The notes: generated from the sequence alone by a model not told the origin. A DNA stretch of 64,000 bases from Deltaproteobacteria bacterium (GCA_016713535.1 JADJOY010000020.1:42900-106899), one strand, 5' to 3'; counted from the first letter of the stretch, positions 1 through 51,788 are shown. Numbers and translations are program-made.

Positions 1-200
1 CGGATCAGTGAGACCTGACCGTCATCGGTGCGGACGCGGAAGTAGTCCTGCGGCGAATCGGTGGGGTGCGGGCTCGAACCGAGCCAGCGATCGAGGACGT
101 CGGTCACGGTCCTGCGCCGGCCGTGATCGAGGGGCGCGCGCGGCTCCTCGCCGCCTCGGGAGCCCGCATACGCCTCGACCCGGATCAGCTCCCAGCCCAT
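1..200 (-). CDS. Hypothetical protein, N-terminal fragment running off the left edge (MGWELIRVEAYAGSRGGEEPRAPLDHGRRRTVTDVLDRWLGSSPHPTDSPQDYFRVRTDDGQVSLI...)
   Basis: Translating the reverse complement from an ATG near 198-200 gives a stop-free, high-GC3 reading frame that continues past position 1. It is absent from the ORF track, presumably because it is truncated by the window edge. Confidence 0.4.
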   Translation of the reverse strand, partial: MGWELIRVEAYAGSRGGEEPRAPLDHGRRRTVTDVLDRWLGSSPHPTDSPQDYFRVRTDDGQVSLI

Positions 201-414
201 CTCTCCCTCCGCGGCCCGCGGCGGAGCTTATCCCCCCACGGGGGCGAGAGGGTCGCGTGTCGGTACGGAACCTGCCTTGTTGACTGCCGGGCACGCCCGC
301 AGGCGCCGCCCCCACCCGAACGCGGACGATTCTCTATCATGATTACAATGCCTTACCAGACGACGCCTCCTCCGCCCCCGACTCCCACCGACGGCCAGCC
401 GGGGGGCGATGCGT

Positions 415-445
415 TGACGATTGATCAACACGTTGCGTGTTCGAC
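415..445 (+). promoter_or_regulatory. Two overlapping palindromes (TTGATCAA and AACACG-ttg-CGTGTT) in an AT-richer leader about 40 nt upstream of the kinase/EBP start; candidate operator
   Basis: Perfect inverted repeats visible in the sequence. GC3 is low across 340-480, so this stretch is non-coding leader. Confidence 0.3.
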
Positions 446-479
446 ATCTGTTCCATTCCCGGTGGAGCCGCAGGAACGC

Positions 480-5534
<5,055 letters not shown>

Positions 5535-5538
5535 CCCG

Positions 5539-6920
5539 ATGACGAGTCGACGTGGCTTACGATCGAAGTGTGCCGCGCCGCTGGCGCTCCTGTTCGCGTT
5601 CGCGGTGCGGTGCTCGGGCGGAAGCGCCGGGCTGCCGCCGATTCCGGTCACGCCGCTCAGGGTGATCCAGGCCGCCCCTGCCCGCCGACGGCAGCCTCTC
5701 CGGTGTGGCCGATCCACACCTCCAGGCGATCCCGGTGAGCGGCGCGGTGGTGTCGGGCACGATCACGGCCAACGTCGCGATCGAGGTGCCGGTCGACCAG
5801 ACCTATTTCCTCGAGGTCACCGACGGCCCCACGCCGTCCCGCTCCGGTGGCGCACTGGTCGGCAACGTGGTGTTCGCGTCGGGCGTCGACTCCCCCGACA
5901 CCAGCGCGCTCTTCGTGAGCGGATCCGCCGATCCGATCGACCTCGGGGAGCTGCGCCTCGCGGCGGGCCGGATCTCCCCCACGACCAATCCCCTCGACTT
6001 CGTCGACGCCAACCGAAACGGCATTCCCGACTCGCAGGAGCCGAACGTCGACCCGCTGCGCGTGCTGCGCGTCGAACCGGCCGACGGAGAGCGACGTCGA
6101 CCGCGACGAGGAGATCGAGCTGCGCTTCTCGCTCGCGATCGACGGCGCGACCGTGAGCGACGCCACGATCCGCCTCGAGGGACCGGGCGGCGCCGTGGCG
6201 ATCGTGATCCGGAACGATAGCGAAGGCGACGACGACGCTGGACGCCTGGAGATCGCGGCGCGCGATCCGCTCGCGCCCGGCGCCCGCTACACCCTCGTCG
6301 TGACCACCGGCGTTCGCTCGACCGACGGTCGCGCCCTCGGCGCCGAGTTCCGCAGCAGCTTCACGACCGGCTCGAAGAACGGCGGGTCCGACGACGGCTC
6401 GGGCGGTGGCGGCGGCGGAGGCGGGTCCGACGACGGCTCCGGCGGTGGCGGCGGCGGAGGCGGGTCCGACGACGGCTCCGGCGGTGGCGGCGGAGGCGGC
6501 TCCGATGACGGGTCCGACGACGACTCCGACGATGGAAGCGGCGGTGGGTCCGACGACGGCTCCGGTGGTGGAGGCGGTGGAGGAGGGTCCGATGACGGGT
6601 CCGACGACGACTCCGACGACGGAAGCGGCGGTGGGTCCGACGACGGCTCCGGTGGTGGAGGCGGTGGAGGAGGGTCCGATGACGGGTCCGACGACGGCTC
6701 CGACGACGGAAGTGGCGGTGGTGGTGGTGGGTCGGACGACGGCTCCGACGACGGCTCGGGCGGCGGTGGCGGTGGCTCCGATGATGGCGACGGCGATACG
6801 CCCGACGACGGCATCGATGATGGGTCCGACGATGATTCGGGTGGCGGCGGGGGTGGTGGGTCCGATGACGACCCCGACGACGAGTGCCCGCCGACCGATC
6901 CCGACTACCCGGACTGCTGA
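5539..6920 (+). CDS. Secreted lipoprotein with SbsA/Big-like Ig-fold domains and a roughly 170-residue C-terminal (G)n-S-D-D acidic low-complexity tail. Apparent frameshifts near 5690 and 6110.
   Basis: Signal peptide MTSRRGLRSKCAAPLALLFAFAVRCSGG in frame 1, then Ig-like segments (VVSGTITANVAIEVPVDQTYFLEVTDG; EIELRFSLAIDGATVSDATIRLEG...YTLVVTTGVRSTDGRALGAEFRSSFTT) in the other two frames. The tail is GGSDDGSGGGGGGGG repeats ending DDECPPTDPDYPDC. The start lies 5 nt after the regulator stop. Confidence 0.6.
6376..6890 (+). repeat. Tandem DNA repeats of about 42-45 bp (ggctccgacgacggctccggcggtggcggcgg...) encoding the GSDDG(G)n tail
   Basis: Near-identical units iterate about 10 times in the sequence; likely length-variable (VNTR-like). 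Confidence 0.7.
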
Positions 6921-7363
6921 CCGACCCGCACCGCCGATCGCCGCACCGCCCGCCGAAGTCGCTCCGGTCGCGGGCCGTCCGCTCGGAGGGCCCGACTCCT
7001 GTCGGGCCGCACTGGATCCGCGCCGCGCGCCCGCTCTCCGGGGAACCATCGGCCGGCGCGAAGCGCTCGCAGCCGCGAGCTCTCCAGCCTGTCGGACACG
7101 CGGTTCGTCGCATGCCCGGCGTTCGACCCGAACCGCCGATCGCCGCCGACACGGGCGGTCACGACACGTGCCTGGCGACCGTCGAAGACGGATCGTCATC
7201 GGCGCGGACGCTCCGGCAGCCCCACGCGCGCCGGATCGTCCACCACCGTTCCTGAGCGGCGGCCCGGGGACGTCAGGGCCGTCCCGTCCGAGCCGCGCAA
7301 AACCGGTGTGATCTCGGTCACGCGGCCCGCGAACCTCCGTTTCCCCGAGCTCCGAAGCGCGTC

Positions 7364-7380
7364 CGGTACGACGGCTGCAA
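7364..7380 (+). promoter_or_regulatory. Candidate sigma54 (-24/-12) promoter cGGTACGacggcTGCAa about 100 nt upstream of the 7479 gene
   Basis: GG-N10-GC spacing with TGCA at -12, compared against the consensus TGGCACG-N4-TTGCW. It sits downstream of an EBP gene. Confidence 0.3.
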
Positions 7381-7478
7381 TTTCGCCGCGCCGGCCGCGG
7401 CACTCCGCAGCGGCCGAGGACGGGACCGAGGCGGCGCCGCGTAGGTCGCGACGCCGGGGCCCGAGAGGGGAACTCGAG

Positions 7479-9176
7479 ATGGTTCGGCAACCGGGAAGCA
7501 ATCGCCACCGGCCGTCGCGCGCCGCGCGCTACGGTCTCTCCGTCGTGTTCGCGGCGCTCACCGCATGCTCGGGCGGCGGCTCGGGCAGCGGCGGCGGCAT
7601 GACGCCGCCACCCGGAGACGGCGGTACGCCACCCCCCACCCCCGCGCCCGCTGGAGGGGCGCGCGTCGTGGGTACGGTCACCGACTCGGGCGCGCTCGGC
7701 GGCGCCCGGTCCGGCGCGCCGGCGGGGGGCGTGTCCGTCGAAGTGCGCAACGCAGGCGGTCGAGCGATCGGCTCGGCCACGACGGACGCGGCCGGAGCCT
7801 TCGCGATCTCGGGGTTGCCGGCCGGAGCGGCCGAGCTCCGGATCGCGCTACCGGCGAGCGCCACCGCGCTCGGGGGCGGCGTGTCGCCCGCGCTCGGCCT
7901 CGCGGTCACGCTCGCCGATCGCACCGACGTGACCCTGGTCGAGGACCTCGGCATCACCGACGTGAGCGGAGACGGCCAGCCCGACGCGGTGGTCTTCGCG
8001 GGCTACGTCCGCGACGCGACGGGCGAGCGTGTGCACCTCATGGCCCTCGACCCGCGCGCCGGCCGCACCACGCCCGACACCAACGGCGACGGCTTCGTCA
8101 CCACCGCTGACGCGAGCTTCGACGATGGCAACGGCGACGGCGTCCCCGACGACTCGCAGCAGGACGTGCCGGTGACCTCGGAGGTCCACGCCCGCGGGGT
8201 GATCGACTCGATCGACGCGACCTCGATCACCGTCGGCGGAGTGACGTTCCTGATCGACGGGAGCACGGTGTGGCTCGACCGCACCGGCACGGCGACGGTT
8301 CCTTCGGCGTTCGCGGCCGGTGAACCCGTCGAGGTCGAGGGCGTTCGCACGACCGATGGCTCGGTGGTGGCCACCCGCGTGAAGGAAGAGGACGACCTCG
8401 GCGGCGTCGGCGAAGGCGAGATCGAGCTGACCGGGACGATCGAGGCGCTCGACGCCACGAGCCTCACGGTGCGCGGCGTCACGTTCGCCGTGACCGCCGA
8501 CACCGCGGTCACCGGTCCGTCCAACCAGCCGCTCGCGTTCGGCGACCTCGCGGTGGGCGACTTCGTGGAAGTGAAGGGTCAGGACACCGGCGGCGGAGTG
8601 GTCGCGGTGCGGATCCACCTCGAGGACCTGGGCGACGACTCGGGCGGCGAGGTCGAGCTGCGTGGAACCATCGACGCGATCGACGCGGGCTCCATCACGG
8701 TCGGCGGACAGGTCTTCGCGACGACGGGCGCGACGTCCTATCTCGACGACCGCAACAACCCGATCGGCCTCGGCGACCTCGCGGTCGGCGACCTCGTCGA
8801 AGCCGAAGGCTTCCGGGACGCGAACGGCAACCTCGTCGCGGAGAAGATCAAGCTCGAGGACGAGCTCGGCGGCGGCGGGGGCAGCGACGACGGACCCGGT
8901 GACGACAGCGGCGGTGGTGGTGGCGGCAGCGACGATGGCCCCGGTGACGACAACGGCGGCGGTGGCGGTGGTGGCAGCGACGACGGGCCCGGTGACGACA
9001 ACGGCGGCGGTGGTGGTGGCGACGACGACGGCCCCGGTGACGACAACGGCGGTGGTGGTGGTGGCGACGACGACGGCCCCGGTGACGACGACGGCGGTGG
9101 TGGTGGTGGCGGCGACGACGACGGCGACGACCACGGTGGTGGTGGAGGTGGCGGCGACGATGACGACGACGACTGA
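7479..9176 (+). CDS. Lipoprotein with a carboxypeptidase-regulatory-like domain, three DUF5666-type repeats and a C-terminal poly(Gly)-Asp acidic tail
   Basis: Lipobox LTAC after MVRQPGSNRHRPSRAARYGLSVVFAALTAC. The VEVRNAGGRAIGSATTDAAGAFAISGLPAG segment looks like a CarboxypepD_reg domain. Three repeats of (I/L)D(A)TSITVGGVTF...GDLAVGDFVEV(K/E)G, then GGGGGSDDGPGDDNGGGGGG... ending in DDDDDD. Confidence 0.8.
   Translation: MVRQPGSNRHRPSRAARYGLSVVFAALTACSGGGSGSGGGMTPPPGDGGTPPPTPAPAGGARVVGTVTDSGALGGARSGAPAGGVSVEVRNAGGRAIGSATTDAAGAFAISGLPAGAAELRIALPASATALGGGVSPALGLAVTLADRTDVTLVEDLGITDVSGDGQPDAVVFAGYVRDATGERVHLMALDPRAGRTTPDTNGDGFVTTADASFDDGNGDGVPDDSQQDVPVTSEVHARGVIDSIDATSITVGGVTFLIDGSTVWLDRTGTATVPSAFAAGEPVEVEGVRTTDGSVVATRVKEEDDLGGVGEGEIELTGTIEALDATSLTVRGVTFAVTADTAVTGPSNQPLAFGDLAVGDFVEVKGQDTGGGVVAVRIHLEDLGDDSGGEVELRGTIDAIDAGSITVGGQVFATTGATSYLDDRNNPIGLGDLAVGDLVEAEGFRDANGNLVAEKIKLEDELGGGGGSDDGPGDDSGGGGGGSDDGPGDDNGGGGGGGSDDGPGDDNGGGGGGDDDGPGDDNGGGGGGDDDGPGDDDGGGGGGGDDDGDDHGGGGGGGDDDDDD
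8866..9172 (+). repeat. Tandem 45-bp-unit DNA repeats encoding the GGGGGGSDDGPGDDN tail
   Basis: Six to seven near-identical units in the sequence; paralogous to the repeat array at 6376-6890. Confidence 0.7.
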
Positions 9177-9198
9177 GACCTGAGCTCGACGGTGAAAC

Positions 9199-9236
9199 GG
9201 CGGGGCGGCGCTCACCGGCGCCGCCCCGCTCGTTTG
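9199..9236 (+). terminator. Rho-independent terminator candidate (stem CGGGGCGGCGC/GCGCCGCCCCG, loop TCACCG, then TCGTTTG)
   Basis: Perfect 11-bp GC stem immediately after the 7479..9176 stop, with a short T-run downstream. Confidence 0.5.
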
Positions 9237-9352
9237 CGGCGTCGACCGCGCGGATGGGACAATCGAGGCCCAGCTCGGTTCGTGGAGGCGAGGCGGCGCG
9301 GGTGCCGATCCCCGGCGTCCGGCGCGGCCTCCCGCCAGGAGAGACCCCGTCC

Positions 9353-10471
9353 ATGTCCCGACCTCGTTCGCGCTCGCTCGGCGCCGCGCTCGTCCTCGCG
9401 TTCGCATCCACCCTCGTGCCGGCGCTCGCTGGCGCCGCCTCGATGAAGGTGATGAGCTTCAACATCCGCTACGACGGCGGCGGCTTCTCGAGCCTCACCG
9501 ATCCGACCGGCTGGCTCTACACCTGCGGCCCCCGACGCGATCGCGTCGTCAACACGATCCTCGACGGGGCGCCCGACATCGTCGGGGTGCAGGAAGCGCT
9601 CTACAACCAGGTCCTCGACATCCAGGCCAAGCTGCCCGGCTACGCCTTCTACGGGGTGGGCCGCAACGACGGGAACACGCTCGGCGAGTTCTCGGGCCTG
9701 TGGTACCGCTCGGATCGCTTCACGCGCTTCGACCAGGGCACCTTCTGGCTGAGCGACACGCCCGACGTGCCGGGCACGGTGTTCCCGTGCTCGGGCTCGA
9801 TCCGCATCGCGAGCTGGATGAAGGTCCACGACTCCGTGAGCGGCGCCGACTACTTCGTCCTCGACACCCACTGGGACAACTCCTGCCAGGATTCGCGCGA
9901 GAAGTCCGCGGTGCTGGTGCGTCAGAAGATCAAGGACCTCTCGGGCGGGCTGCCCGTGATCGCGTTGGGCGACCTGAACACGGGCGAGTCGAGCCTGGCG
10001 GTGTCGACGCTGCGCGGGGTCGGCGATCCCACCGGCTTCCAGCTCGCCGACACCTACCGCGAGGTGTTCCCGGTGGCGTCGCCCGACGAGGCGACGTTCC
10101 ACGGCTGGGACGGCGGCGTCGCCGGCTCGCGCATCGACTTCCTCCTCCACACCGCCGACTTCACGCCCACCGCCGCGGCGATCGTCCACACCGGCTTCAC
10201 CTGCGGCTACCCGTCGGACCATTTCCCGGTCACGGCGACGTTCACCACGCCGGGCACGCCGAGCGCCGCCGCCGAGCACGCCTCGGCGAGCGCGGCCCCC
10301 GCGCCGGCGCTGGTCGATCCGTGCATCCCGAACTGCACTGGCTGCGGCGCCAACGTGGCGCCCGCGAGCCGCTCGGCCGCCTCGCCGTGGGGCTGGCTCG
10401 CGGCGACCGGCGCCTTCGCGGCGGTGCTCGGCGCGCGAGTGCGTTCGGCGCGCCGCCGACTCGTCCCGTGA
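9353..10471 (+). CDS. Secreted endonuclease/exonuclease/phosphatase (EEP) family protein with a MYXO-CTERM-like sorting tag
   Basis: Signal peptide [33 protein letters not shown]-fold motifs (MSFNIRYDGG, GVQEA, LGDLNTGE, SDHFPV). C-terminus CTGCGANVAPASRSAASPWGWLAATGAFAAVLGARVRSARRRL. SD AGGAGAG lies 12 nt upstream. Confidence 0.8.
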   Translation: MSRPRSRSLGAALVLAFASTLVPALAGAASMKVMSFNIRYDGGGFSSLTDPTGWLYTCGPRRDRVVNTILDGAPDIVGVQEALYNQVLDIQAKLPGYAFYGVGRNDGNTLGEFSGLWYRSDRFTRFDQGTFWLSDTPDVPGTVFPCSGSIRIASWMKVHDSVSGADYFVLDTHWDNSCQDSREKSAVLVRQKIKDLSGGLPVIALGDLNTGESSLAVSTLRGVGDPTGFQLADTYREVFPVASPDEATFHGWDGGVAGSRIDFLLHTADFTPTAAAIVHTGFTCGYPSDHFPVTATFTTPGTPSAAAEHASASAAPAPALVDPCIPNCTGCGANVAPASRSAASPWGWLAATGAFAAVLGARVRSARRRLVP

Positions 10472-10520
10472 GCGCCGCCCCTCGCATCGACGCCCCCTTC
10501 CCGCTCGAGGACCGTTGCCC

Positions 10521-12413
10521 ATGAACCGCCGCCGACTCGTGTCGTTCGGTCTCACGCTCTCCTTCCTCGTGGCGCTCGCGGGCTGCCACACCATCGCCGC
10601 CGTCGAGCCGCCCGAGAGCTGTGTGGGCAACGTGGTGCGCCTCCGCGGCGCCAACTTCGGCTTCAGCCAGGACGCGAGCCGGGTGTTCTTCGGCGACGTC
10701 GAGGCGACCGAGATCCGCGGCTGGAACCAGGACGCGATCGACGTCGTCGTGCCCGCGGGTGCGGTGACCGCGCCGGTCCGCGTCGAGGCGCTCGGCGAGA
10801 CGCAGTCGTCGCCGAGCGATTTCGTGGTGACGAGCGGGGCACTCGCGTGCCGCGGCTCGATGATCCCGGGACCGAACGAACACGGCTACGACGCCGACCT
10901 CGAGGCGCTCGCTCGCAAGTACGACCGCCAGTTCCACGTCTTCAACGCAGCACCCATGGCGATCAACGCCGACCTCACGGTCGCCCTCGATCGCCCGGCC
11001 GATCGTGAGCTGATCCGCTCGTTCCTGCAGGAGACCGACGGCTGGGACTTCGAGAGCTACGCCGGCAAGTCGATCTACGACACCGTCACCGGCTGGGCGA
11101 AGACCGCGGGCCTCTACGCCGGCGTGGGGATCGCCGCCGACGCCTACCGCTACGGCGTGCTGCGTGACGAGGGCTACCCCGCCGACGAGGTCGCGCGCGC
11201 CCGCCAGCACCTCGTCGCCGCCCTCGACGCGCTCCACCTCGCGCTCGAGATCACCGGCGTCGAGGGCGTGATCGCGCGCGGCTTCATCCGCCGCGACATC
11301 CCGGGCGACGGCGTCACCCAGCCCACCACGCCGCTCTTCGACGGAAACGGCAACCCGCTGCCACCCGAGAAGACGAACGGCACCTGGCGCGAGGACAACT
11401 CGGGCGGGCGCTACCCGAACTACATCTGGGAAGACTCGTGCAGCCGCGACCAGTTCATCGGCTGGGCGGCCGCCATGGGCGCCGCGTGGGAGGTGATCGC
11501 CGCCGATCCCACGTTCAGCGACGACGCGCGGACACGACTGCAGGCCGACGCGCTGGCGCTCGGCCGCATGCTCTCCACCGTGCAGGCGAGCGGCTACGAC
11601 CTCGAGATCCAGGACGCCGACGGCCGCCCCACCTTCCACGCCTACCTGAACGAGAACGCCTTCGACCGGATCTATCTGCCCTTCCTGCCGTTCAAGGACG
11701 GGTTCTACGCGGCGATGTCGCTCGGCATCGTGTCGTCGTTCGTCTACACGAGCGGTGACGCCGGGCTCGCCAGCTACCTCGACGACACGCTCATCGGCGC
11801 GCGCCGCCTCGGTGACATCGTCGCCGCCAACCTGATCGGCGTCGACGTGGGTTACCAGTCGAACTTCAGCGGCGTGAACATGGTGGCGCAGGGGCTGCTG
11901 CTCGCGCAGCGCTACGTCACCCAGCCCGGCGCTCGCGAGGACCTCATCACCAGCGTGAAGTGGAAGTTCTACGACAAGCCGACCACCCGCCAGCCCGTCG
12001 AGCAGGGCCAGACCCTCTACGACTTCACCTTCGCCGCGGGCAGCGCCGACGCGTCGGCCTACGGCGCCTTCCCGCGCCGCCCCGACGCCGAGGCGATGGC
12101 GCGCGGCCTCGCGACGCTGAAGGCGTTCCCCGAGCCGCCCTACTGGGACGTCGCGCGCACCAACTGCGACGCCGACGAGATCGCCTCCGGCGCGTGCACC
12201 GCCGACGACGGCAGCCACCTCGACGTGCTCGGCTACATCGGCCGCAACGACGACCTGATCACCACCCAGCCGATCCCGATGCGCATCCGCCCACCGAGCA
12301 ATTACCACTGGCGCTCCAACCCGTACATCCCGAACGGCGGCGGCGACGGCAGCCGGCTCATCCCCGGGGTCGACTTCCGCTACACGTACTGGCTCGGCCG
12401 CTGGGTGTCGTAG
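10521..12413 (+). CDS. Lipoprotein (lipobox LAGC) with an N-terminal IPT/TIG-like domain; function unknown
   Basis: MNRRRLVSFGLTLSFLVALAGC then VVRLRGANFG...VRVEALG (Ig-like). Coding-like high GC3 throughout. Confidence 0.7.
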   Translation: MNRRRLVSFGLTLSFLVALAGCHTIAAVEPPESCVGNVVRLRGANFGFSQDASRVFFGDVEATEIRGWNQDAIDVVVPAGAVTAPVRVEALGETQSSPSDFVVTSGALACRGSMIPGPNEHGYDADLEALARKYDRQFHVFNAAPMAINADLTVALDRPADRELIRSFLQETDGWDFESYAGKSIYDTVTGWAKTAGLYAGVGIAADAYRYGVLRDEGYPADEVARARQHLVAALDALHLALEITGVEGVIARGFIRRDIPGDGVTQPTTPLFDGNGNPLPPEKTNGTWREDNSGGRYPNYIWEDSCSRDQFIGWAAAMGAAWEVIAADPTFSDDARTRLQADALALGRMLSTVQASGYDLEIQDADGRPTFHAYLNENAFDRIYLPFLPFKDGFYAAMSLGIVSSFVYTSGDAGLASYLDDTLIGARRLGDIVAANLIGVDVGYQSNFSGVNMVAQGLLLAQRYVTQPGAREDLITSVKWKFYDKPTTRQPVEQGQTLYDFTFAAGSADASAYGAFPRRPDAEAMARGLATLKAFPEPPYWDVARTNCDADEIASGACTADDGSHLDVLGYIGRNDDLITTQPIPMRIRPPSNYHWRSNPYIPNGGGDGSRLIPGVDFRYTYWLGRWVS

Positions 12414-12500
12414 CGAGCGCCTTCGCGCCGCACCGTCACGCTCGGCTCGCCGACGCACCCGTTGCTGTGTCCGGCTGCACCGATCGCCCCGAAAGGAATC

Positions 12501-12590
12501 GGGAGGGCTGACGCCCTCCCCTACATGCCCACGGGTCGTCCCGTGGCCTGCGTAGGGGCGGGGCCCGTCCCCGCCCGGCGGGGGCCATCC
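12501..12590 (+). repeat. REP-like multi-hairpin element, family C (GGGAGGGCTGACGCCCTCCCCTACATGCCCACGGGT...CGTAGGGGCGGGGCCCGTCCCCGCC)
   Basis: Three stem-loops in series. Related copies occur at 17624-17700 and 20950-21012. Confidence 0.6.
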
Positions 12591-12639
12591 AGGGCCCCAA
12601 AACCGCGCTCTCGTGCGGGAAAGCAATGCGAACCGGCCT

Positions 12640-12706
12640 GTAAAGCTTAAGCCGGACAATTTTGTAGAGCATCAGCTTTACGATTTTGTATAGCAACAGC
12701 TTTACA
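12640..12706 (+). promoter_or_regulatory. AT-rich array of dyad-symmetric sites: TGTAAAGC half-site, then two tandem 24-bp units TGTAnAGC-N4-GCTTTAC(A/G); candidate operator or enhancer 130 nt upstream of the TPR gene
   Basis: ATTTTGTAGAGCATCAGCTTTACG and ATTTTGTATAGCAACAGCTTTACA sit directly side by side; TGTAAAGCT lies upstream as the reverse-complement half-site. GC content drops sharply here against the 72% GC background. Confidence 0.45.
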
Positions 12707-12836
12707 AGCGGGCCTCCACGGCACCTCACGGCCGGCTCGACCACGGCACGTCCCACCGATGGCGACCCTCCCGGACAACGTCGCTACGCTGTCGGGACTT
12801 CTACTACACCCACGGCTGCGGCCTTCGGAGGAACCG

Positions 12837-14539
12837 ATGCATCGACATCGCCGGTTGCTGGTCGTCCCGATCGCGCTCGCCACGCTGTTCACCCTCGCCG
12901 CCGCGCGCGCCGCGACCGCGCAGCACGAGGGCCACACCGACGTCGCCACGGCGGAGAACCTCGGCGCCACCACCACCGCCGGCGCGCTGTCGCCCAAGCT
13001 CCACGACCTCGGCAGCTATTCGCGCAAGGCCTCGACACGCTCGGCGCAAGCCCAGACGTACTTCGATCAGGGGCTGATGCTCGCGTACGCCTTCAACCAC
13101 GCCGAGGCGGAGCGCTCGTTCCGCGAGGCGCAGCGCCTCGATCCCGGCTTCGCGATGGCGTGGTGGGGCCAGGCGTACGTGCTCGGCCCCAACATCAACG
13201 CGCCGATGGACGAGGGTGCGGTCGGCTCCGCGTACGAGGCGGTGCGCAAGGCCGTCGAGCTCGAGGGCAAGGCGAAGCCCTGGGAGCAGGGGCTGATCGC
13301 CGCGCTCGCGGTGCGCTACGGCACCGACCCGAAGGCGGACCGCAAGCCGCTCGACGCCGCCTACGCGCGGGCCATGCAGGACCTCGCCACGCGCCATCCA
13401 AAGGATCCCGACATCCTCGCCATGGCCGCCGAGTCCATCATGGACACCGATCCATGGAACTACTGGACCAACGACGGCCACCCGCGTCCCTACACCGAGG
13501 ACGTGCTGCGGCTGATCGAGAGCGCGCTCGCGGTGAGCCCGAGCCACCCGCTCGCCCTGCACCTCCACATCCACGCCACCGAGGCCTCGCAGGACCCCGA
13601 TCGCGCCCTCGCGAGCGCCGAGAAGCTCGGCCGGGTCGCGCCCGGCGCGGGGCACCTCGTGCACATGCCCGGCCACGCGTTCTTCCGCGTCGGCCGCTAC
13701 CAGGACGCGGTGCAGGCCAACCTCGACGCGATCGCGGTCGACGAGAGCTACATCACCCAGTGCCGCGCGCAGGGCATCTACCCCGCGGCCTACTATCCCC
13801 ACAACATCCACTTCCTGTGGATCGCATCCGCCTACCTCGGCAAGTCCGCCGACGCTCTCGACGCCGCGCACAAGACCGCGAGCAAGGCGCACCCGGGCTG
13901 CCGCTGCCGACCGACCAGTTCCTGGTCACGCCGCTGCACACGCTGGTCAAGTTCGCGCGCTGGAAGGACGTGCTCGGGTACGCCCAGCCGCCCGCCGAGA
14001 ACGTCTTCGCAACCGGCCTGTGGCACTTCGCGCGCGGCATGGCGCTCGCAAACACCGGCGACCCGGGCGCCGCGCAGGCCGAGCTCGAGGCGCTGCGCGC
14101 CGCGCGCAAGAACCCCGCGTTCCCACCCCAGCTCCTCATGGTGAACTCGTCGCCCGCGCGGCTCGCGGAGATCGCCGAGCGCTCGCTGGCCGGCGAGATC
14201 GCGTGGCAGCGCGGCGAGAAGGAGAAGGCCCTCGCCGAGCTCGACGCGGCGGCGCGCCTCGAGGACTCGCTCACCTACAACGAGCCGCCCGACTGGCCCT
14301 TCCCCGTGCGCCACTCCCTCGGCGCGTTGCTCCTCGACCTCGGCCGCCCCGTCGAGGCCGAGGCGGTGTACCGCGAGGACCTGCGGCGCAGGCGCGAGAA
14401 CGGCTGGGCGCTCTTCGGTCTGGTGCAGTCGCTACGCGCTCAGGGCGAGGACCGCGCGACCGACCTGGCGCAGGCCGAGGCGCGCTTCCAGAAGGCGTGG
14501 GCCAAGTCCGACCTGGCGCTCACGTCGTCGCGGTTCTGA
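12837..14539 (+). CDS. Periplasmic TPR-repeat protein; apparent 1-bp frameshift near 13890 at CCCGGG (ORF-track pieces 12759..14144 and 12686..14539)
   Basis: SD GGAGGAA, then ATG and signal peptide MHRHRRLLVVPIALATLFTLAAARAATA. Helical TPR-like sequence continues across the frame junction (KAHPG | LPLPTDQFLVTPLHTLVKFARW). Confidence 0.7.
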
Positions 14540-14603
14540 GCGCGGCCGAGGCCCGGGAACCGTCGACCCGGAAGAGCGCGGGCGAGCGGCGCCGGGCACG
14601 CCA

Positions 14604-15716
14604 TCACGGCAGCGCGGCGCTGCTCGGGACGCTGGCGCGGGTGCGCTCCTCGACGAGCTCGGCCACGATCACCTGCGCGATCGCCGCGGTCGGCACGGCC
14701 AGCAGCACGCCGACGATGCCCAGCCACGCCCCGCCGATCAGCAGCGCCACCAGCACCACCACCGCGTTGAGCCCCATCTGGCGGGACATGAGGCGCGGCA
14801 CCAGGATGTGGTTCTCGAGCTGCTGCTGCGCGAAGAAGAAGACCGCGGTCCAGAGCGCCAAGCTCCACGACTCGGTGGCCGCGAGGCCGATGGCCGGGAT
14901 CGCGGTCAGCAACGGTCCGACGTACGGGATCCACTCGCCGAAGGCGGCGAGGATCGCGAGCACGTAGAAGTACGGCACACCGAGCAGCCCGAGTCCCAGC
15001 GCGGCGGTCGCGCCGATGATGCCGGCGAGCATCGCTTGGCCGATCAGCCAGTCGCTCGCCTTCTGCACGATGCGCCCCGACACCTCCCGGACCTGCCCGC
15101 GGCGCTCGCGCGGCACCAAGGACAGGACGCGGCGGTAGAGCGGCGCCCAGTCGAGGAGCAGGTAGAGCGAGAGCACCAGCACGGTGACGACCGCGAACAC
15201 GGCTCCAACCACCTCGGAGGCCGCCGCCACCGCCTTGCCCGCGACCTTCGAGGTTCCGGGCAGGTGGTTCGCCAGCTCGCCCGCCGGCGGCGTGTCGATG
15301 CCGCGCGCCTCGAGCCACGCCCGCCCGCGGTCGAGCAGCTCGGGCGCGTGGTGGGCGAGGGAGCGCGCCTGGCTGACGAACGGCGGCGCGGCGAGCGCGA
15401 GCGCGCCCACGATCACCACCACCACGCCGACGTAGACGATCGCGATCGCGCCCTTGCGCGACGGATGCAAGCGGCGCCCACGCCACGGCAGACCTCGCTC
15501 CTCGAGGCGGCGGACGATCCGGCTGACGCCGAGCGCGAGGAGCGTGCCGACGTAGAGCAGGAGCAGCGGAGTCCGCGCGAGGTACGCCAGCCACGAGACC
15601 AGCGCGCAGGTGAAGAAGAGCCCCACTCCCCACGCAACGAGCCCGCGTGCCTCGCGGTGGGCGGAGTCAACGGACTGCGGGTTCTCGGGTTCGTCGGATT
15701 CGTCGGATTCGCGCAC
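14604..15716 (-). CDS. AI-2E family transporter (PerM/YhhT-like, UPF0118)
   Basis: Characteristic C-terminal TM region (GEWIPYVGPLLTAIPAIGLA, FFFAQQQLENHILVPRLM). GTG start has GGAG 9 nt upstream. The rest of the long antisense ORF (to 18218) is shadow. Confidence 0.8.
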   Translation of the reverse strand: MRESDESDEPENPQSVDSAHREARGLVAWGVGLFFTCALVSWLAYLARTPLLLLYVGTLLALGVSRIVRRLEERGLPWRGRRLHPSRKGAIAIVYVGVVVVIVGALALAAPPFVSQARSLAHHAPELLDRGRAWLEARGIDTPPAGELANHLPGTSKVAGKAVAAASEVVGAVFAVVTVLVLSLYLLLDWAPLYRRVLSLVPRERRGQVREVSGRIVQKASDWLIGQAMLAGIIGATAALGLGLLGVPYFYVLAILAAFGEWIPYVGPLLTAIPAIGLAATESWSLALWTAVFFFAQQQLENHILVPRLMSRQMGLNAVVVLVALLIGGAWLGIVGVLLAVPTAAIAQVIVAELVEERTRASVPSSAALP

Positions 15717-20534: not shown

Positions 20535-20544
20535 GAAGACCAGC

Positions 20545-20625
20545 GCCAGCGAAGCGCCGCGGGGGGACGGAGCCCCCCGCGCTACGAAAATCATCGTAGC
20601 GACGGGGGTTCCATCCCCGTCGCCA
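20545..20625 (-). repeat. REP-like three-hairpin element, family A, inverted orientation
   Basis: CGCGGGGGG-acggag-CCCCCCGCG, CTACGA-aaatca-TCGTAG and GACGGGGG-ttccat-CCCCGTC. Same modules occur at 37601-37668, 48277-48345 and, partially, 41250-41292. Confidence 0.65.
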
Positions 20626-23312: not shown

Positions 23313-24962
23313 TCACGGCTGACTGCACCCGCCCGGCGTCGCCGCGTCGCAATCCTCGTCGATGCCGTTGCCGGGGAGCTCGGTGGCCCCCGGGTGTACG
23401 CCGCCGCGGAGGTCGTCGCAGTCGAGCGCCGGGTGGGCGCAGCTCGCCGACGGCGGGCTGCCGTAGCCGTCGTGGTCGACGTCGCGACACGGGTCGCAGG
23501 CGTCGCCGATGCCGTCGGCGTCCGCGTCGAGCTGCTCCGGATCGGCGACCGCCGGGCAGTCGTCGTGGCCGTCCGGGTATCCGTCGCCGTCCGTATCGGG
23601 TGACCCGAACACGAACGCCGCGCCCGCATCGCTCGTCGCTCCGTCGTCGCCGGGCGCGCCCACGAGCACGGTGCCGCCGTCCATCGCCACCGAGAACCCG
23701 AACGCGGTCCAGCCGAGCCCGTGCGGCTCGCCGTAGGTGCGGGTCTGGATCCAGCCGCCGGGTCCGTTCTCGAATACCTGGACGAGGCCTGCTCCGGTCG
23801 AGCCCTCGATGGACGCCGCCGGCCCGCCCACCACCGCGGTGTCCCCCTCCAGGTCGACGCGCAGCCCGAACACGTCCCACGGCTTCGCGCCGGTGGCGTG
23901 GAGCTCGACGGATTCGGTCCAGCCTCCGTCCGGTTGCTTGTCGAAGACGTACGCGGAGCCCGCGTTCTCGCCGAGGTCGTCGTCGAGCCGCGCGCCGATC
24001 AGCACGCGCTCGCCCGACGCCGCCACCCACTGGCCGAAGCGGTCCTCGACGTGGCCGTCGCTCTGGGTCAGCCAGGCGCTCTCGGCCCAGCCGCCGGCGC
24101 CCCGCTCGAACACGTACGCCGAGCCCGAATAGAGCGCCGAGCCCGTGGCGATGTGCGCGCCCACCACGAGCACGTCGTCATCCAGGTCGAGGGTCTCGCC
24201 GAAGTGGGTGTAAGGCGCGCCGTTGCTGGGCGTGAGCTTCGCCGTCACGGACCACGCCCCTTGCTGCTGCTCGAACAGATAGACGGATCCCGACCACGGC
24301 CCGTCGTCGTCGTCCGCGAAGGCACCCACGCCGATCCGACCGCCGTTCGCCGTCACGCCGTAGCCGAAGAACGACCCCGCGACCGCGTCCGGCGCGACGA
24401 GCTTGGCCGTCTGCACCCAGGCCCCACCCGAACGCTCGAAGACGTAGGCCGCGCCCGGGAAGCTGCCGGGCTCGGTGAAGCGAACCGCGCCGCTCTCGCC
24501 CACCACGATGCGATCGCCGTCGACGGCCACGCCGATGCCGAACCAGCCGTCCAGCACCGAGTCGTCGCCGCGTAGCACCGCGGTCTGGGTCCAGGCGTTC
24601 CCGATCCGCTCGAACACGTGCGCCACCCCGGTGCGCAGCGGCGACGCTGGGCCGACCTCCGGCTCGATGGCGCCGACGACCGCCACGTCCCCGTCGATGT
24701 CGACGCTCTGTCCCGAGAGGTTCGAGCCGTCGAGACCGCTCCCGTCGAGCTGGCTCCACACTGCGGGAAGGCTCGCGGCTCGCGACCGCGTGGCGCGGCT
24801 CGCGGGAGTGCGCTCCTCCAGCTCGGCCGCGTGCTCCGGCAGACATCGGTCGAGGCGAAGCGATTCGCCGGCCGATGCGCCACCTCCCGCTCGCGGCGAG
24901 AGCAGCGCCAACGTCAGCAGCGACGTGCGGGCGACCGAGCCGTGTGTACCGCCGTGACGCAT
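23313..24962 (-). CDS. FG-GAP (integrin-alpha-like) repeat protein with a C-terminal MopE-type Cys/Asp putative metal-binding motif
   Basis: Signal peptide MRHGGTHGSVARTSLLTLALLSP. Repeated ...GSAYVFER..GxW.......FG motifs. C-terminus DACDPCRDVDHDGY...GNGIDEDCDAATPGGCSQP. Confidence 0.8.
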   Translation of the reverse strand: MRHGGTHGSVARTSLLTLALLSPRAGGGASAGESLRLDRCLPEHAAELEERTPASRATRSRAASLPAVWSQLDGSGLDGSNLSGQSVDIDGDVAVVGAIEPEVGPASPLRTGVAHVFERIGNAWTQTAVLRGDDSVLDGWFGIGVAVDGDRIVVGESGAVRFTEPGSFPGAAYVFERSGGAWVQTAKLVAPDAVAGSFFGYGVTANGGRIGVGAFADDDDGPWSGSVYLFEQQQGAWSVTAKLTPSNGAPYTHFGETLDLDDDVLVVGAHIATGSALYSGSAYVFERGAGGWAESAWLTQSDGHVEDRFGQWVAASGERVLIGARLDDDLGENAGSAYVFDKQPDGGWTESVELHATGAKPWDVFGLRVDLEGDTAVVGGPAASIEGSTGAGLVQVFENGPGGWIQTRTYGEPHGLGWTAFGFSVAMDGGTVLVGAPGDDGATSDAGAAFVFGSPDTDGDGYPDGHDDCPAVADPEQLDADADGIGDACDPCRDVDHDGYGSPPSASCAHPALDCDDLRGGVHPGATELPGNGIDEDCDAATPGGCSQP

Positions 24963-25209
24963 GGGGACCCCGGCTGCGCTTCGCAAACGTTCGTCCGACC
25001 CTACGCCTCGCGCTCGCGGCTGCACAAACCCCGGGAACCCGCACCTGGGCAGCGAGGCCGGCCAGCCAGGTCGGCTGGCGCTCTCCCGGCCTCCAGCAGC
25101 GCGGACCGGAGCCCGCCGGCCGAACCGGCGCGGCGCGAAGACCGAGTGACCCCCAGGAACCTCGACGCGCCGCTCGCCGGGCCACCGCGGCCCGCTGGTG
25201 CACCGAGGA

Positions 25210-25692
25210 TCACGCACGAGCCGCGGCGGACCTCACGGAGGGTGTCAGCGCCCGCCAGCGGCCGGACGCCGCGCACACGAGCAGATAGATCCCGATCGGC
25301 GCGTCGAAGAGCGCACAGGCGCGGGGAAGAGCCGCGTACGCGTCCGGGAGGTCGCGCGGGACGAAGTCCCACGCGACGTGCGCGAGCCAGGCGACCCCGA
25401 GCAGCCACGGCGCGCGGAAGGTGCCCTGCGCGGCCAGCACGACGTAGGCGAAGAACACCGCGACCTCGAGCGGCCTGCCCGTGTGCGCGTACGTCATCCC
25501 GAGCCAACCCGTGAACGCCGCCCAGCCGATGTGCTCGACGACCGGACCCGTGATGCGGAGCGCCGCGATCAGGACCGCGGCGAACGGTGCCGCGGCCTCG
25601 ATCAACGTGCCGGCGTGGGCGACCAGACCAACGCCGTAGCCGGCGGCGACGACCCAGAAGACGATGTAGAGCGTCGCGATCGTAGGGCTCAC
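25210..25692 (-). CDS. Small polytopic membrane protein (about 160 aa, 4 TM), hypothetical
   Basis: GTG start before VSPTIATLYIVFWVVAAGYGVGLVAHAG. The N-terminal part of ORF 25210..25965 is Arg-rich junk. Confidence 0.5.
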   Translation of the reverse strand: MSPTIATLYIVFWVVAAGYGVGLVAHAGTLIEAAAPFAAVLIAALRITGPVVEHIGWAAFTGWLGMTYAHTGRPLEVAVFFAYVVLAAQGTFRAPWLLGVAWLAHVAWDFVPRDLPDAYAALPRACALFDAPIGIYLLVCAASGRWRALTPSVRSAAARA

Positions 25693-37360: not shown

Positions 37361-37378
37361 GTTTTTCGGGGGGCTGTT

Positions 37379-37603
37379 CCAGCCCCCCGCCCGCCGGGAG
37401 TGAATCCCGGCGGGGCCCACCCCCGAGGCACTCGCTGCGCTCGTGGCGTCGCGCTGCGACGCGCAGAGTGCCAAGTCCACCCGTGGCGCGAGCCGGCCGA
37501 GTGGCTTCGCGCTCGAGCACGTTCCAGCCCCCCGCCCGCCGGGAGTGAATCCCGGCGGGGCCCACCCGAGGCACTCGCTACGCTCGTGGCGTCGCGCTGC
37601 GAC
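37379..37603 (+). repeat. Two tandem copies of an approximately 88-bp hairpin element (family B: CCAGCCCCCCGCCCGCCGGGAGTGAATCCCGGCGGGGCCCACCC...GAGGCACTCGCTGCGCTCGTGGCGTCGCGCTGCGACG)
   Basis: Direct duplication visible at about 37379-37466 and about 37511-37603. Each copy contains the stem CCCGCCGGG/CCCGGCGGG. Confidence 0.7.
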
Positions 37604-37760
37604 GGGGGATGGAACCCCCGTCGCTACGATCCTCTTCGTAGCGCGGGGGGCTCCGCCCCCCCGCGGCGCGTCGCTCTCGCGCGATTGCTTCACGGGCCCG
37701 AGGGGAGGAGCACGCGTTGCGTGCCCGGCGATACGCGAGGGCGTCGCAGCGACGGTCCCG
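37601..37760 (+). repeat. REP-like three-hairpin element, family A (GACGGGGGATGGAACCCCCGTC / GCTACGATCCTCTTCGTAGC / CGCGGGGGGCTCCGCCCCCCCGCG) plus tail module
   Basis: Hairpin order is the reverse complement of the 20545-20625 copy. The tail matches 27820-27900 and 41292-41330. Confidence 0.7.
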
Positions 37761-40351: not shown

Positions 40352-41222
40352 ATGCAAAGCAACCCGATCTACTACGCCATCCCGTTCTTCTTCGCGACCA
40401 TGCTCGGCGAGGCGCTCTGGCTGCGCCGCGACCGCAGTCGCGGACGTCCCTACGAGACCCGCGACACCGCGGCGAGCCTGTCGATGGGTGTGGGCTACCT
40501 GGTGGTGGCGCTCTTCTGGAAAGGGGTCGAGCTCGCGATCTTCTCGGCCTTCTACCAGGTCCGGCTCTTCGATCCCAGGTACCGGTCCGTGGGCGTGGCT
40601 GGCGGTGATGATCGGCTGGGACCTCTGCTACTACGCCTACCATCGCGCAGGACACGTGGTGCGGCTCTTCTGGGCCACGCACGTGAACCACCACTCGAGC
40701 CAGCGCTACAACCTCTCGACCGCGCTGCGCCAGACCTGGACGCCCTACCTCGGCTTCGTCTTCTACGTGCCGCTCGCGATCCTCGGCTTCCGCCCCGAGA
40801 TGATCCTGATCGCGGGCGCCTGGAACCTGCTCTACCAGTACTGGATCCACACCGAGGTGGTCGATCGCCTACCGGCGTGGTTCGAGGCGGTCTTCAACAC
40901 GCCGTCCCACCACCGCGTCCACCACGGCACCAACGCCGAGTACCTCGACAGGAACTACGCCGGGATCCTGATCGTGTGGGACAAGATGTTCGGCACCTTC
41001 GAGCCCGAGGTGGCGCGGCCGATCTACGGACTCACCAAGAACATCGAGACGTACAATCCGGTGGACGTGGCCTTCCACGAATGGCGGGCGATGTTCCGCG
41101 ACGTCGCGCGCGCGACGCGCTGGACGGACCGCCTCCACCTGCTGTTCAGCCACCCCGGCTGGAAGCCAGCGGGCGTGTCGAGCGCCGACGAGCTCGCCTC
41201 GCTTCCCAGCGCGGCGGCCTGA
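40352..41222 (+). CDS. Fatty-acid hydroxylase / sterol-desaturase superfamily membrane protein (His-box); apparent frameshift near 40570
   Basis: His boxes HRAGH, HVNHHSS and HHRVHHG lie in the frame of ORF 39984..41222. The N-terminal TM region (MQSNPIYYAIPFFFATMLGEALWL...) lies in the 40352 frame. Confidence 0.75.
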
Positions 41223-41249: not shown

Positions 41250-41330
41250 ATCCATCGTTTTCGTGGCGCGGGGGGCTCCGTCCCCCCGCGGCGCTTCGCT
41301 CTTGCCCGAGGTCTTCACGGCCTCTCCGTC
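41250..41330 (+). repeat. Partial REP family A copy (hairpin CGCGGGGGGCTCCGTCCCCCCGCG plus tail)
   Basis: Aligns with 37643-37700. Confidence 0.5.
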
Positions 41331-50284: not shown

Positions 50285-51788
50285 ATGAAGCTGGCTTCCT
50301 CGGCGCTCCGGCGCGCGCTCGGCGTCCTCCTCCTGCTCGTTCTCGTGCCGTGCACGGCGGGCGCGACCACCCACTGGGCGAAGCTCGCGCCCGGGGACGG
50401 CCAGCAATTCGACACCTTCGGGCTCGCGGTCGCGATCGACGGCGACACCATCATCGTCTCGAAGGGCACCGTGATCCCGCAGTCGGGACCGGGCTGGCTC
50501 TACGCGTTCACGCGCAGCGGCGGGAAGTGGACCCAGGCGCAGAAGTTCCAGCCGAGCGGCATCCAGCCAGGCGAGTGGTTCGGCGCCCTCGACCTGGAGG
50601 GCACGACACTGGTGGGCTCGAGCGCGCCGCAGCTCAACACGCTCGGCTCGAACGCCGCCTCGGCCTACGTGTTCGAGAAGAGCGGCTCGACGTGGGCGGC
50701 CACCCAGAAGCTCCCCCTCCGATCCGGGCGCGCAGGACGACTTCGGCTCGTGGATCGCGGTGAGCGGCACCACGCTGGCGGTGGGTGCCGGGCGCAAGGC
50801 CGATCAGGGGCTCGGCTCGGGCGCGGTGTACGTGTTCGAGAAGGGCGGCACCGGCTGGACCCAGACCCAGAAGCTCGTGGCGGGCGATGGCACCCAGGGC
50901 GCGATGTTCGGCACCAGCGTCGACATCGACGGCTCGACGATCGTGGTCGGCGCACCCGGTGATCCCAGCCACGGCAACCTCACCGGCGCGGTGTACGTCT
51001 TCCAGAAGACCTCGGGCGTGTGGAACCAGACCCAGAAGCTGATCGCGAGCGACGCCACCGCGAACCAGTTCCTCGGCGACCGGGTGGCGCTCTCCGGCAC
51101 CTCGCTGGTGGCGAGCGCCTGGGGTACCGCCACCCAGGGCAACACCGCGGGCGCGGTGTACGCGTGGGAGCTGGCGAGCGGCAGCTTCGCTCAGAGCCAG
51201 AAGATCATCCCCGCCGACACCGGCGCCCAGGACCGCTTCGGCGCCGCGCTGGCGCTGAAGAACGGAAGCCTCGTGGTCGGCGCGGTCGGCGACGACGACC
51301 GCGGCCCCAACACCGGCGCGGCCTACGTCTTCACCAAGCCGGGTGCGACGTGGACGCAGCTCGAGAAGCTCACCGCGTCGGACAGCACCAGCGACGAGGA
51401 CTACGCGGCCGCCGTGGCGACCAACGGCAACTGGATGGTGGTGGCGGCGGACGCCAACGGCCTCGGGCTGGTCGGCTCCTCCTACGTCTACGGCAAGACC
51501 GACGCCGACGGCGACGGCTACCCGGTCGAGGTCGACTGCCTCGACACCAACGCGAACGTGAACCCCGGTAAGACCGAGGTCCCCAACAACGGGATCGACG
51601 ACGACTGCAACGCTGCCACCCCCGATACGACTGGCTGCGGCCGCGTCGCCGGCGGCATGACCGGTGGCGCGGTGCCGTTCGCGGTGGCAGCCGTGGGGCT
51701 GGCCGCCGTGCGGTTCGGCTTCCGCCGCCGCCCTCGCCCAGCCGACCGATGGAGCGCCGGCAGGTTGGGTGTGCCGAGGGCGCAGTAG
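50285..51788 (+). CDS. Secreted FG-GAP repeat protein with MopE-type motif and MYXO-CTERM tag; frameshift near 50720 at CCCCC
   Basis: MKLASSALRRALGVLLLLVLVPCTAGA. Repeated GSAYVFEKSG..W motifs. C-terminus NNGIDDDCNAATPDTTGCGRVAGGMTGGAVPFAVAAVGLAAVRFGFRRRPRP. Confidence 0.75.

Follow-up and report, generated by a model that had tools for sequence, protein, structure and literature searches.

Two neighbouring genes in a stretch of metagenomic DNA end in long runs of glycine, aspartate and serine that are written as tandem repeats, and the question they raise is whether such tails are genuine parts of working proteins and, if so, what they might do outside the cytoplasm. The stretch (JADJOY010000020.1:42900-106899, 64,000 nt in full, hereafter the window) has a G+C content of ∼72% and comes from an uncultured high-G+C 'Deltaproteobacteria' lineage of wastewater. 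The genes concerned are gene A (5539-6920, + strand), gene B (7479-9176, + strand), and the gene of a sigma54 activator, an enhancer-binding protein (EBP, 339-5534, + strand), whose C terminus is 100% identical to NCBI MBK7975343.1 (from a 'Deltaproteobacteria bacterium' metagenome-assembled genome, on a 280-kb contig). Judging from sequence comparison across assemblies and orthologues, we conclude that the tails are genuine protein features and no artefacts. Our leading reading of their role, which we put forward tentatively, is that the locus is a conserved envelope module whose Gly-spaced poly-Asp tails bind Ca2+/Mg2+ and possibly also act as flexible spacers.

The window was compared with related contigs from other assemblies. 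L008, a JGI contig of metagenome 3300056625, is 99.5% identical to window positions 1-15462; its source was a pilot-scale biological nutrient-removal wastewater plant, sequenced with PacBio, assembled with metaFlye, and polished with racon (PMC10949500). L006, a SPAdes-named (NODE_...) and low-coverage ENA contig, is from the same species as the window, and these three assemblies were used to compare the gene A lipobox within the species. For a sister species we compared three assemblies (L002, L007/P0163, and P0164); for intergenic DNA, five loci (the window, L005, L001, L002, and L007); and for gene order, four lineages (window/L008; L005; L001; L002/L007).

Gene B and its downstream flank carry the following features.

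7479-9176, +: gene B, a predicted lipoprotein of 565 aa (open reading frame, Pfam domains, orthologues at 42-78% identity).
7479-7568, +: signal peptide with lipobox L-T-A-C, Cys30 (sequence pattern, conserved in orthologues).
7659-8075, +: transthyretin-like/CarboxypepD_reg-like beta domains (PF13620, 31.6 bits, slightly below the cut-off).
7956-8156, +: three DxxxDG-type loops, DVSGDGQPD, DTNGDGFVTTAD, and DGNGDGVPDD (invariant in the orthologue alignment).
8181-8855, +: three DUF5666 domains, small beta barrels like the oligonucleotide/oligosaccharide-binding (OB) fold (PF18914, E 4.3e-46, 155.5 bits, cut-off 27, three stretches).
8862-9173, +: tail of seven (G5-7 [S/D]DDGPGDD[S/N/D]) units ending DDDDDD, a 45-nt tandem repeat (Tandem Repeats Finder [TRF], composition).
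9199-9231, +: G+C-rich terminator-like hairpin after gene B (folding free energy –49.3 kcal/mol, z –5.8, 0 of 200 shuffles as stable).
9254-10471, +: exported Exo_endo_phos family protein (Pfam PF03372, E 1.1e-14).

We placed the start of gene B at ATG 7479 and not at the first in-frame GTG (7308); a conserved Shine-Dalgarno sequence accompanies this ATG, and the orthologues start at the same position. The N terminus, MVRQPGSNRHRPSRAARYGLSVVFAALTAC, has a basic n-region, a hydrophobic stretch (YGLSVVFAALTA), the lipobox LTAC with Ala at –1, and then a Gly/Ser/Pro tether. As a pattern reading, this is the lipobox of a bacterial lipoprotein (Lgt/LspA substrate), for which we took a basic n-region, a hydrophobic h-region, and [LVI][ASTVI][GAS]C within approximately the first 35 residues. 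AlphaFold (AF2), given 15 sequences, modeled residues 61-460 of gene B with confidence, showing confident strands at 61-199 and a predicted local distance difference test score (pLDDT) of 75-95 in the DUF5666 domains. Foldseek matched the N-terminal domain to the UafA B domain and to transthyretin/PucM, and a profile search against the PDB matched cellulosomal X-modules (X-Doc) at E 3e-6. A dockerin or X-Doc reading of this N terminus was rejected: the Ig-like X-module part carries the match, and the model has strands, not dockerin helices. The DxxxDG loops are sub-threshold in Pfam (FG-GAP 18.8 bits, cut-off 22.1; Dockerin_1 E 0.35; EF-hand_5 E 1.5), and the loop region was modeled at pLDDT 49-66. 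The tail (residues 463-565) is predicted to be disordered, having been modeled at pLDDT ∼42 with no secondary structure. It is 104 aa long, 53% Gly and 33% Asp, with 1% hydrophobic residues and a net charge of –35, in a protein that is strongly acidic as a whole; at the DNA level TRF delimits the array at 8867-9160 (period 45, 6.2 copies, 88% matches, score 388).

The features of gene A are as follows.

5539-6920, +: gene A, comprising a signal peptide, an N-terminal beta region with a DANRNGIPD loop, Big_5, a Gly/Asp/Ser tail, and a C-terminal Cys motif.
6050-6370, +: Big_5 (bacterial Ig-like) domain, spanning the second of two frame breaks (Pfam PF13205, E 2.6e-13).
6375-6881, +: low-complexity tail of (G6-8 SDDGS / DDDSDDGS) units, 39-nt and 87-nt tandem repeats (TRF, repeat families, composition).
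6882-6917, +: conserved C-terminal motif ECPPTDPDYPDC, 12 aa with two Cys (the same ending, DDCPPTDPDYPDC*, in L005).

Gene A does not lie in one open reading frame in the window, as had first been supposed for 5539-6920. Starting in frame 1 at 5539, it passes into frame 2 at approximately 5681 and into frame 3 at approximately 6090, with one C too many in the 5675-5678 run and 2 nt too few at 6091/6092. In the frame-corrected protein, Big_5 scores 51 bits against a gathering cut-off of 23.6 and covers profile positions 3-105 of 105. The tail is 181 aa long (46% Gly, 29% Asp, 16% Ser), carries a net charge of –53, and ends ECPPTDPDYPDC, the ending CPPTDPDYPDC being common to window/L008 and L005; its disorder is inferred from composition. 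Like the gene B tail, it is nearly free of hydrophobic residues. No Pfam match was found for the C-terminal Cys motif. TRF delimits the array at 6381-6788, with periods of 39 (7.6 copies, 72% matches, score 262), 87 (3.5 copies, 90% matches, score 432), and 45 nt (score 140). In the window, L006, and L008 the gene A lipobox reads FAFAVRC, and with Arg at –1 it fails the lipobox pattern, with AFA|V as a candidate signal peptidase I site in its place; the orthologues in L001, L002, and L007 have the canonical lipobox LALGC (ALGC). The placement of the low-complexity region also differs among lineages. In L001, L002, and L007 it consists of ∼150-170 aa (Gly/Ser/Asp) inside the protein and links Big_5 to a C-terminal DUF5666 domain, whereas window gene A lacks a DUF5666 domain (Pfam) and the region is terminal in window/L008 and L005.

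Measured against these results, the original prediction stands in part. The Ig-like and DUF5666 domains it named were recovered as Big_5 and a DUF5666 triplet, and the acidic Gly-Ser/Asp tails are present in both proteins and reach DDDDDD in gene B. The tandem repeats lie where they had been placed (TRF), although their description as near-perfect units of 42-45 bp does not hold for gene A (39 and 87 nt) and is too strong for gene B (45 nt, 88% matches). Likewise, the description as paired lipoproteins holds for gene B (LTAC) and fails for gene A (AVRC). Two findings had been named as fatal to it, a collapse of the repeats in a better assembly and a lack of export signals; there is no such collapse in the second assembly, L008, and gene B keeps its export signal.

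Between assemblies, the tails differ by whole units. The repeat periods of 39, 45, and 87 nt are all multiples of 3, and because the units are in frame, tail length can change without breaking the reading frame. Between the window and L008, the gene B tail DNA is base-for-base the same but for one clean 45-nt unit (seven units vs eight), and the gene A tail DNA is identical save one GGT codon (3 nt); the gene A tail of L006 is exactly one 39-nt unit shorter. Length variation by repeat units, which had been foreseen, is thus seen between assemblies of the same population. In the sister species, the folded domains of gene A are 99-100% identical and indels are confined to the low-complexity linker, while gene B has two 4-residue indels, both within the low-complexity tail, and one single-residue indel in the N-terminal Pro-rich tether. 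Ordinary coding sequence writes 68-77% of its glycines as GGC, but in the tails usage moves away from this codon and GGT reaches 24-47%. We additionally observed that this shift, from GGC to GGT/GGA, interrupts otherwise long (GGC)n tracts.

Orthologues retain the charge of the tail rather than its sequence. Gene B has orthologues at 78% (L005), 65-68%, and 42% identity, and in all eight full-length gene B-type proteins measured, the segment after the last DUF5666 domain is 41-164 aa long, has a net charge of –10 to –74, and is at most 9% hydrophobic; P0146 and P0147 also have acidic tails, as judged by eye. The tail sequences are not alignable, their Gly content ranges from 19 to 56% among orthologues, and the poly-Gly form with runs of 6-8 Gly is restricted to the window's clade. 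Acidity and disorder, not sequence, appear to be under selection. The linkers between the DUF5666 repeats of relatives are likewise G/D-rich. One gene B orthologue, P0002, bears the NCBI name 'DUF5666 domain-containing protein', and a HMMER search with gene B returned 1922 DUF5666 cluster representatives at E≤1e-3. No relative was found when the GTDB species genomes and JGI metagenome contigs were scanned with the gene B alignment, sets outside which the window's own genome lies, and no NCBIfam family covers gene A or gene B. Looking up window gene B and P0167 by exact match likewise returned no contig. The gene B family is rare. In the literature, DUF5666 appears solely in omics tables and has no known function.

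The gene neighbourhood is conserved together with the proteins. All four lineages share the order EBP–gene A–gene B, and the EBP lies directly upstream in every lineage where that sequence is available. The kinase-EBP that had been predicted immediately upstream is confirmed by its Pfam architecture; between its stop codon (5532-5534) and the ATG of gene A (5539) lie 4 nt, and in L001 the two genes overlap. The window, L005, L007, and L008 have the Exo_endo_phos gene downstream of gene B; L001 does not. Upstream of the EBP lie a divergent gene for an MgtE Mg2+ channel (L001 912-2252, L007 431-1771, L008 4734-6074) and a small gene of 79-90 aa; the MgtE gene of L008 sits upstream of the window's first base. 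The hairpin 3' of gene B is conserved in L005 (z –4.6) and, lacking a T run, escapes the simple terminator scan; a hairpin downstream of gene A (6989-7008) folds no better than shuffled sequence (z –0.5).

The following elements bear on regulation.

339-5534, +: EBP, with the architecture Ser/Thr kinase–TPR–GAF–sigma54 AAA+ (Sigma54_activat)–HTH_8 (Pfam on three pieces, tblastn).
7365-7379, +: sigma54-type –24/–12 element GGTACGACGGCTGCA upstream of gene B (GG-N10-GC, positional conservation).
262-275, +: second sigma54-type –24/–12-like element GGTACGGAACCTGC, 77 nt upstream of the EBP start (conserved in L008, L001, and L007).
7308-7321, +: palindrome GTGATCTCGGTCAC (GTGA-N6-TCAC), one copy in the gene A–gene B intergenic region in five of five loci.

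As a sigma54-type element we counted GG and GC 10 nt apart in a TGGCACG-N4-TTGCW-like sequence upstream of a gene. The element that had been proposed at 7364-7380 is present at 7365-7379, and its distance to the gene B ATG is essentially fixed: GG[CT]A[CT]G..G.CTGCA occurs once per locus in five loci, 114-118 nt before that ATG (cGGTACGACGGCTGCA in the window, cGGCACGACGGCTGCA in L001), in intergenic DNA that is otherwise poorly conserved. Similarly, the window, L008, L001, and L007 all have GGTACGGAA(CC/AA)TGC, between flanks that differ, 77-91 nt upstream of ATGATTACAATG, the conserved start of the EBP, which suggests that the EBP–gene A operon is autoregulated from this putative second element. 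Scans for sigma70 promoters and simple terminators over 5300-9500 gave no matches. From the arrangement of these elements, there are probably two transcription units, EBP–gene A and gene B, both sigma54-dependent and EBP-activated. The palindrome, whose half-sites we take to resemble the E. coli CRP consensus, stands 19 nt (L001, L002, and L007) or 57-58 nt (window, L005) upstream of the sigma54-type GG. GTGA-N6-TCAC occurs five times in the window against 0.57 expected (7308, 30640, 32342, 38917, and 58153), and the copies may mark the regulon of a CRP/FNR-type regulator. By open reading frame coordinates, four of the five copies are seemingly intergenic or promoter-proximal.

We postulate the following mechanism. 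The EBP would switch on gene B through sigma54 and probably also activate its own operon with gene A, and the products of genes A and B would be located in the cell envelope. There the tails would form extended polyanionic chains with a high capacity but a low affinity for divalent cations (Ca2+/Mg2+), and they may double as flexible spacers. A cation-related role is favored by the acidity kept across orthologues, by motifs resembling Ca loops, by the MgtE gene nearby, and by a habitat rich in Ca, Mg, and phosphate; the loops in question are the invariant DxNxDG-type loops of gene B and the similar DANRNGIPD loop of gene A. We hold this reading to be possible and somewhat short of probable, for several points weigh against it. 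No homology ties the tails to ion binding, no Pfam family matches the tail at E≤10 (RTX repeat model included), and the Ca-loop motifs score below Pfam thresholds. Gly content is not conserved in the more distant orthologues, and the poly-Gly runs may therefore have arisen incidentally as repeats expanded in a genome of 72% G+C, in which extreme GGC/GAC-type low-complexity expansions are not startling. The unit-count differences between assemblies could be assembly effects. The Arg at lipobox position –1 in this species' gene A is a further point against it. With regard to regulation, sigma54 consensus matches (three mismatches) occur at chance level in the window (74 found, 77.5 expected), and because the CRP-like palindrome lies right beside the sigma54 element in three loci, another regulator may act. 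Finally, the internal position of the gene A region in L001, L002, and L007, between Big_5 and DUF5666, fits a pure spacer role.

This last point opens the most serious alternative, that the Gly/Asp/Ser regions are mainly entropic spacers, tethers, or a repulsive brush, whose acidity keeps the chain extended and soluble and whose ion binding is incidental. What would be held off the membrane is the DUF5666 domain in the sister lineages and the Cys-loop motif in the window species. The linker position of the gene A region in L001, L002, and L007 argues for this explanation, as do the 12-aa Cys motif conserved after the region in the window and L005, the G/D-rich linkers between DUF5666 repeats of relatives, and the predicted disorder of the gene B tail. 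However, that tail ends in DDDDDD with nothing distal to tether, and net charges of –35 to –74 are far above solubility needs, acidity being the one property kept across orthologues. We consider a mainly mechanical role somewhat unlikely. Cation binding and a spacer role are compatible, and the cation-binding reading includes both.

Far less probable, in our view, is an extracellular module for nucleic acids or other polyanions, in which the OB-like array and an acidic, DNA-mimicking tail (as in SSB and T7 gp2.5) would work with the neighbouring exported Exo_endo_phos protein as a nuclease/phosphatase. Such a module could draw on the best Foldseek matches of the DUF5666 array, which are tandem cold-shock and S1 domains, and on the Exo_endo_phos gene downstream of gene B in four loci. 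Yet the query-normalized template modeling score (TMq) of those matches is only 0.09-0.12, which reflects generic OB geometry, and L001 lacks the Exo_endo_phos neighbour. The DUF5666 domains are themselves strongly acidic, with few Lys/Arg or aromatic residues, and a role with extracellular DNA is unlikely for that reason.

A further explanation is that the locus is decaying, with gene A and the EBP as pseudogenes and the repeats as neutral slippage products in dead or dying genes. It could appeal to the non-canonical gene A lipobox and to the two frame breaks that gene A and the EBP each have in the window; the EBP changes frame near 2354 and again near 4408 and thereby occupies three frames, and an intact 1737-aa EBP orthologue in L001 is collinear with the window in frames 3/2/3 (tblastn). 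These breaks are, however, all missing from L008. Relative to L008, the window lacks C at 2354, GC at 4408, GA after 6087, and G at 13895, and each of these indels, as well as the extra C at 5675-5678, corresponds to exactly one window frame break. L008 reads through all five, so that gene A is a single open reading frame of 461 aa there, and so is an unrelated TPR gene (567 aa) that is broken at 13895 in the window. L008 has errors of its own, an extra C at window positions 3309 and 7639, which break the EBP and gene B in that contig. At 5675, L006 and L008 both have CCC where the window has CCCC; at the second gene A break L006 is uninformative, because a 110-nt foreign insert (1341-1449, replacing window 6075-6086) lies exactly there. 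Because the breaks are absent from L008 and similar ones affect the EBP and unrelated window genes (13895, confirmed against L008, and apparently ∼40600, ∼47040, and ∼50720), we conclude from the compared sequences that the window frame breaks are assembly errors. In addition, a sister species with a 78%-identical gene B has kept both the frame of the tail and the Cys motif at the C terminus. Together with the reciprocal errors in L008, the absence of the breaks from that contig makes pseudogenization very unlikely. That the repeats themselves are spurious expansions of a long-read consensus is barely credible, for although the window assembly is demonstrably error-prone for single bases, such errors spare the repeats, which remain open and in frame, and the repeat sequences recur base-for-base in PacBio L008 and partly in L006, with only whole units differing, and have equivalents in orthologues from four other assemblies. 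The locus thus serves as a warning case in which single-base errors of long-read metagenome assemblies produce apparent pseudogenes while long repeats can be trusted.

Several further observations were made on these assemblies. The L006 insert encodes a CCA-adding-enzyme-like peptide, and at L006 position 420 (window 5135-5152) an 18-nt deletion removes the conserved NVREL motif of the EBP; L006 is probably a chimeric or erroneous contig. The apparent window breaks near 40600, 47040, and 50720 lie in unrelated genes, the last inside a CCCCC run, and the genes split by window indels of 1-2 nt comprise the EBP, gene A, TPR, fatty-acid-hydroxylase-like, aromatic amino-acid hydroxylase-like, and FG-GAP genes, with some of the indels in C homopolymers. 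Elsewhere, a dispersed REP-like element of approximately 76-110 nt with the hairpin GCGCGGGGGGCTCCGCCCCCCCGCG occurs at window 20543-20618 (–), 37605-37680, and 41254-41320 and at L008 6347-6460, and a perfect 47-nt direct repeat has copies 145 nt apart (37376-37422 and 37521-37567). An FG-GAP-repeat protein with a MopE-like Cys-rich motif (Pfam) is encoded at 23313-25232 (–), and a similar beta-propeller-repeat protein, judged by eye, at 50285-51788 (+). The latter and the Exo_endo_phos protein (9254-10471) have C termini composed of GCG, a hydrophobic helix, and RRR, in which the resemblance to a MYXO-CTERM-type sorting signal is at eye level and no NCBIfam model confirmed it. Scans of the window for tRNAs and Rfam families gave no matches.

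To DUF5666 (lipo)proteins (PF18914), gene B is similar in having three bona fide domains behind a lipobox; it differs in its Gly/Asp low-complexity region, since only approximately 9 of 162 DUF5666 proteins examined passed a strict Gly/Asp low-complexity screen, and nearly all of these have the full-length gene B architecture. CusF, a periplasmic OB-fold metallochaperone, superposes on a single DUF5666 domain (template modeling score to target 0.65-0.71, root mean square deviation 1.7-2.7 Å). The metal ligands of E. coli CusF are His/Met/Met/Trp, and we rejected a CusF-type metallochaperone because the three DUF5666 domains lack Met and have only stray His/Trp (by eye, with the sequences unaligned to CusF). 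SSB and T7 gp2.5 share with gene B an OB-like barrel and a flexible acidic tail, but they are cytoplasmic DNA binders, whereas the proteins here are exported.

RTX repeats are the textbook Ca2+-binding Gly/Asp-rich repeats, and the likeness lies in Gly/Asp-rich repeats on exported proteins of Gram-negative bacteria. We rejected membership of the tails in this class, because the GGxGxDxUx register, with its hydrophobic residue at position 8, is missing, tail B is 1% hydrophobic, and the RTX model gave no match. RTX proteins form a beta-roll and carry a C-terminal type I secretion signal, whereas the gene B tail is predicted to be disordered and export here would proceed through a signal peptide. 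In RTX proteins the Ca2+-binding unit is a Gly/Asp-rich nonapeptide (HemolysinCabind; PMC3034196). Streptococci have Ser/Thr-rich extracytoplasmic intrinsically disordered regions on membrane-associated proteins and lipoproteins (PMC12041528). These resemble the tails as long low-complexity disordered segments on exported, membrane-tethered proteins; they are, however, Ser/Thr-rich, glycosylated, and Gram-positive, whereas the window tails are Gly/Asp-rich, strongly anionic, and C-terminal.

A compositional likeness links the tails to eukaryotic acidic proteins that bind Ca2+ or form biomineral matrices, such as calsequestrin with its acidic tail, Asprich/aspein, and scallop MSP-1 with its DGSD/DSD motifs. 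Shared features are extreme Asp content with Gly/Ser spacing, a polyanionic and presumably disordered chain, and, in tail A, many DGSD and DSD strings. The proteins are non-homologous, the resemblance is compositional only, and this bacterium has no known mineral context. A long shot, by analogy, is that the locus is a bacterial counterpart of such biomineral-matrix or Ca2+-buffer proteins, in which a kinase-sensing sigma54 activator would deploy tails that capture Ca2+/Mg2+ and control calcium phosphate/carbonate nucleation at the cell surface in phosphorus-removal sludge, with a capacity tuned across the population by repeat gain and loss. If the tails bind cations or shape an envelope charge layer, the locus would be a compact, regulated example of disordered polyanionic segments outside the cytoplasm, with a polyanionic property tuned by in-frame repeat gain and loss, and it would offer a first functional handle on DUF5666, a widespread domain. 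Disordered low-complexity regions on exported bacterial proteins and Gly/Asp-rich Ca2+-binding RTX repeats are known already, whereas the family, tail type, and regulatory context described here are undescribed so far.

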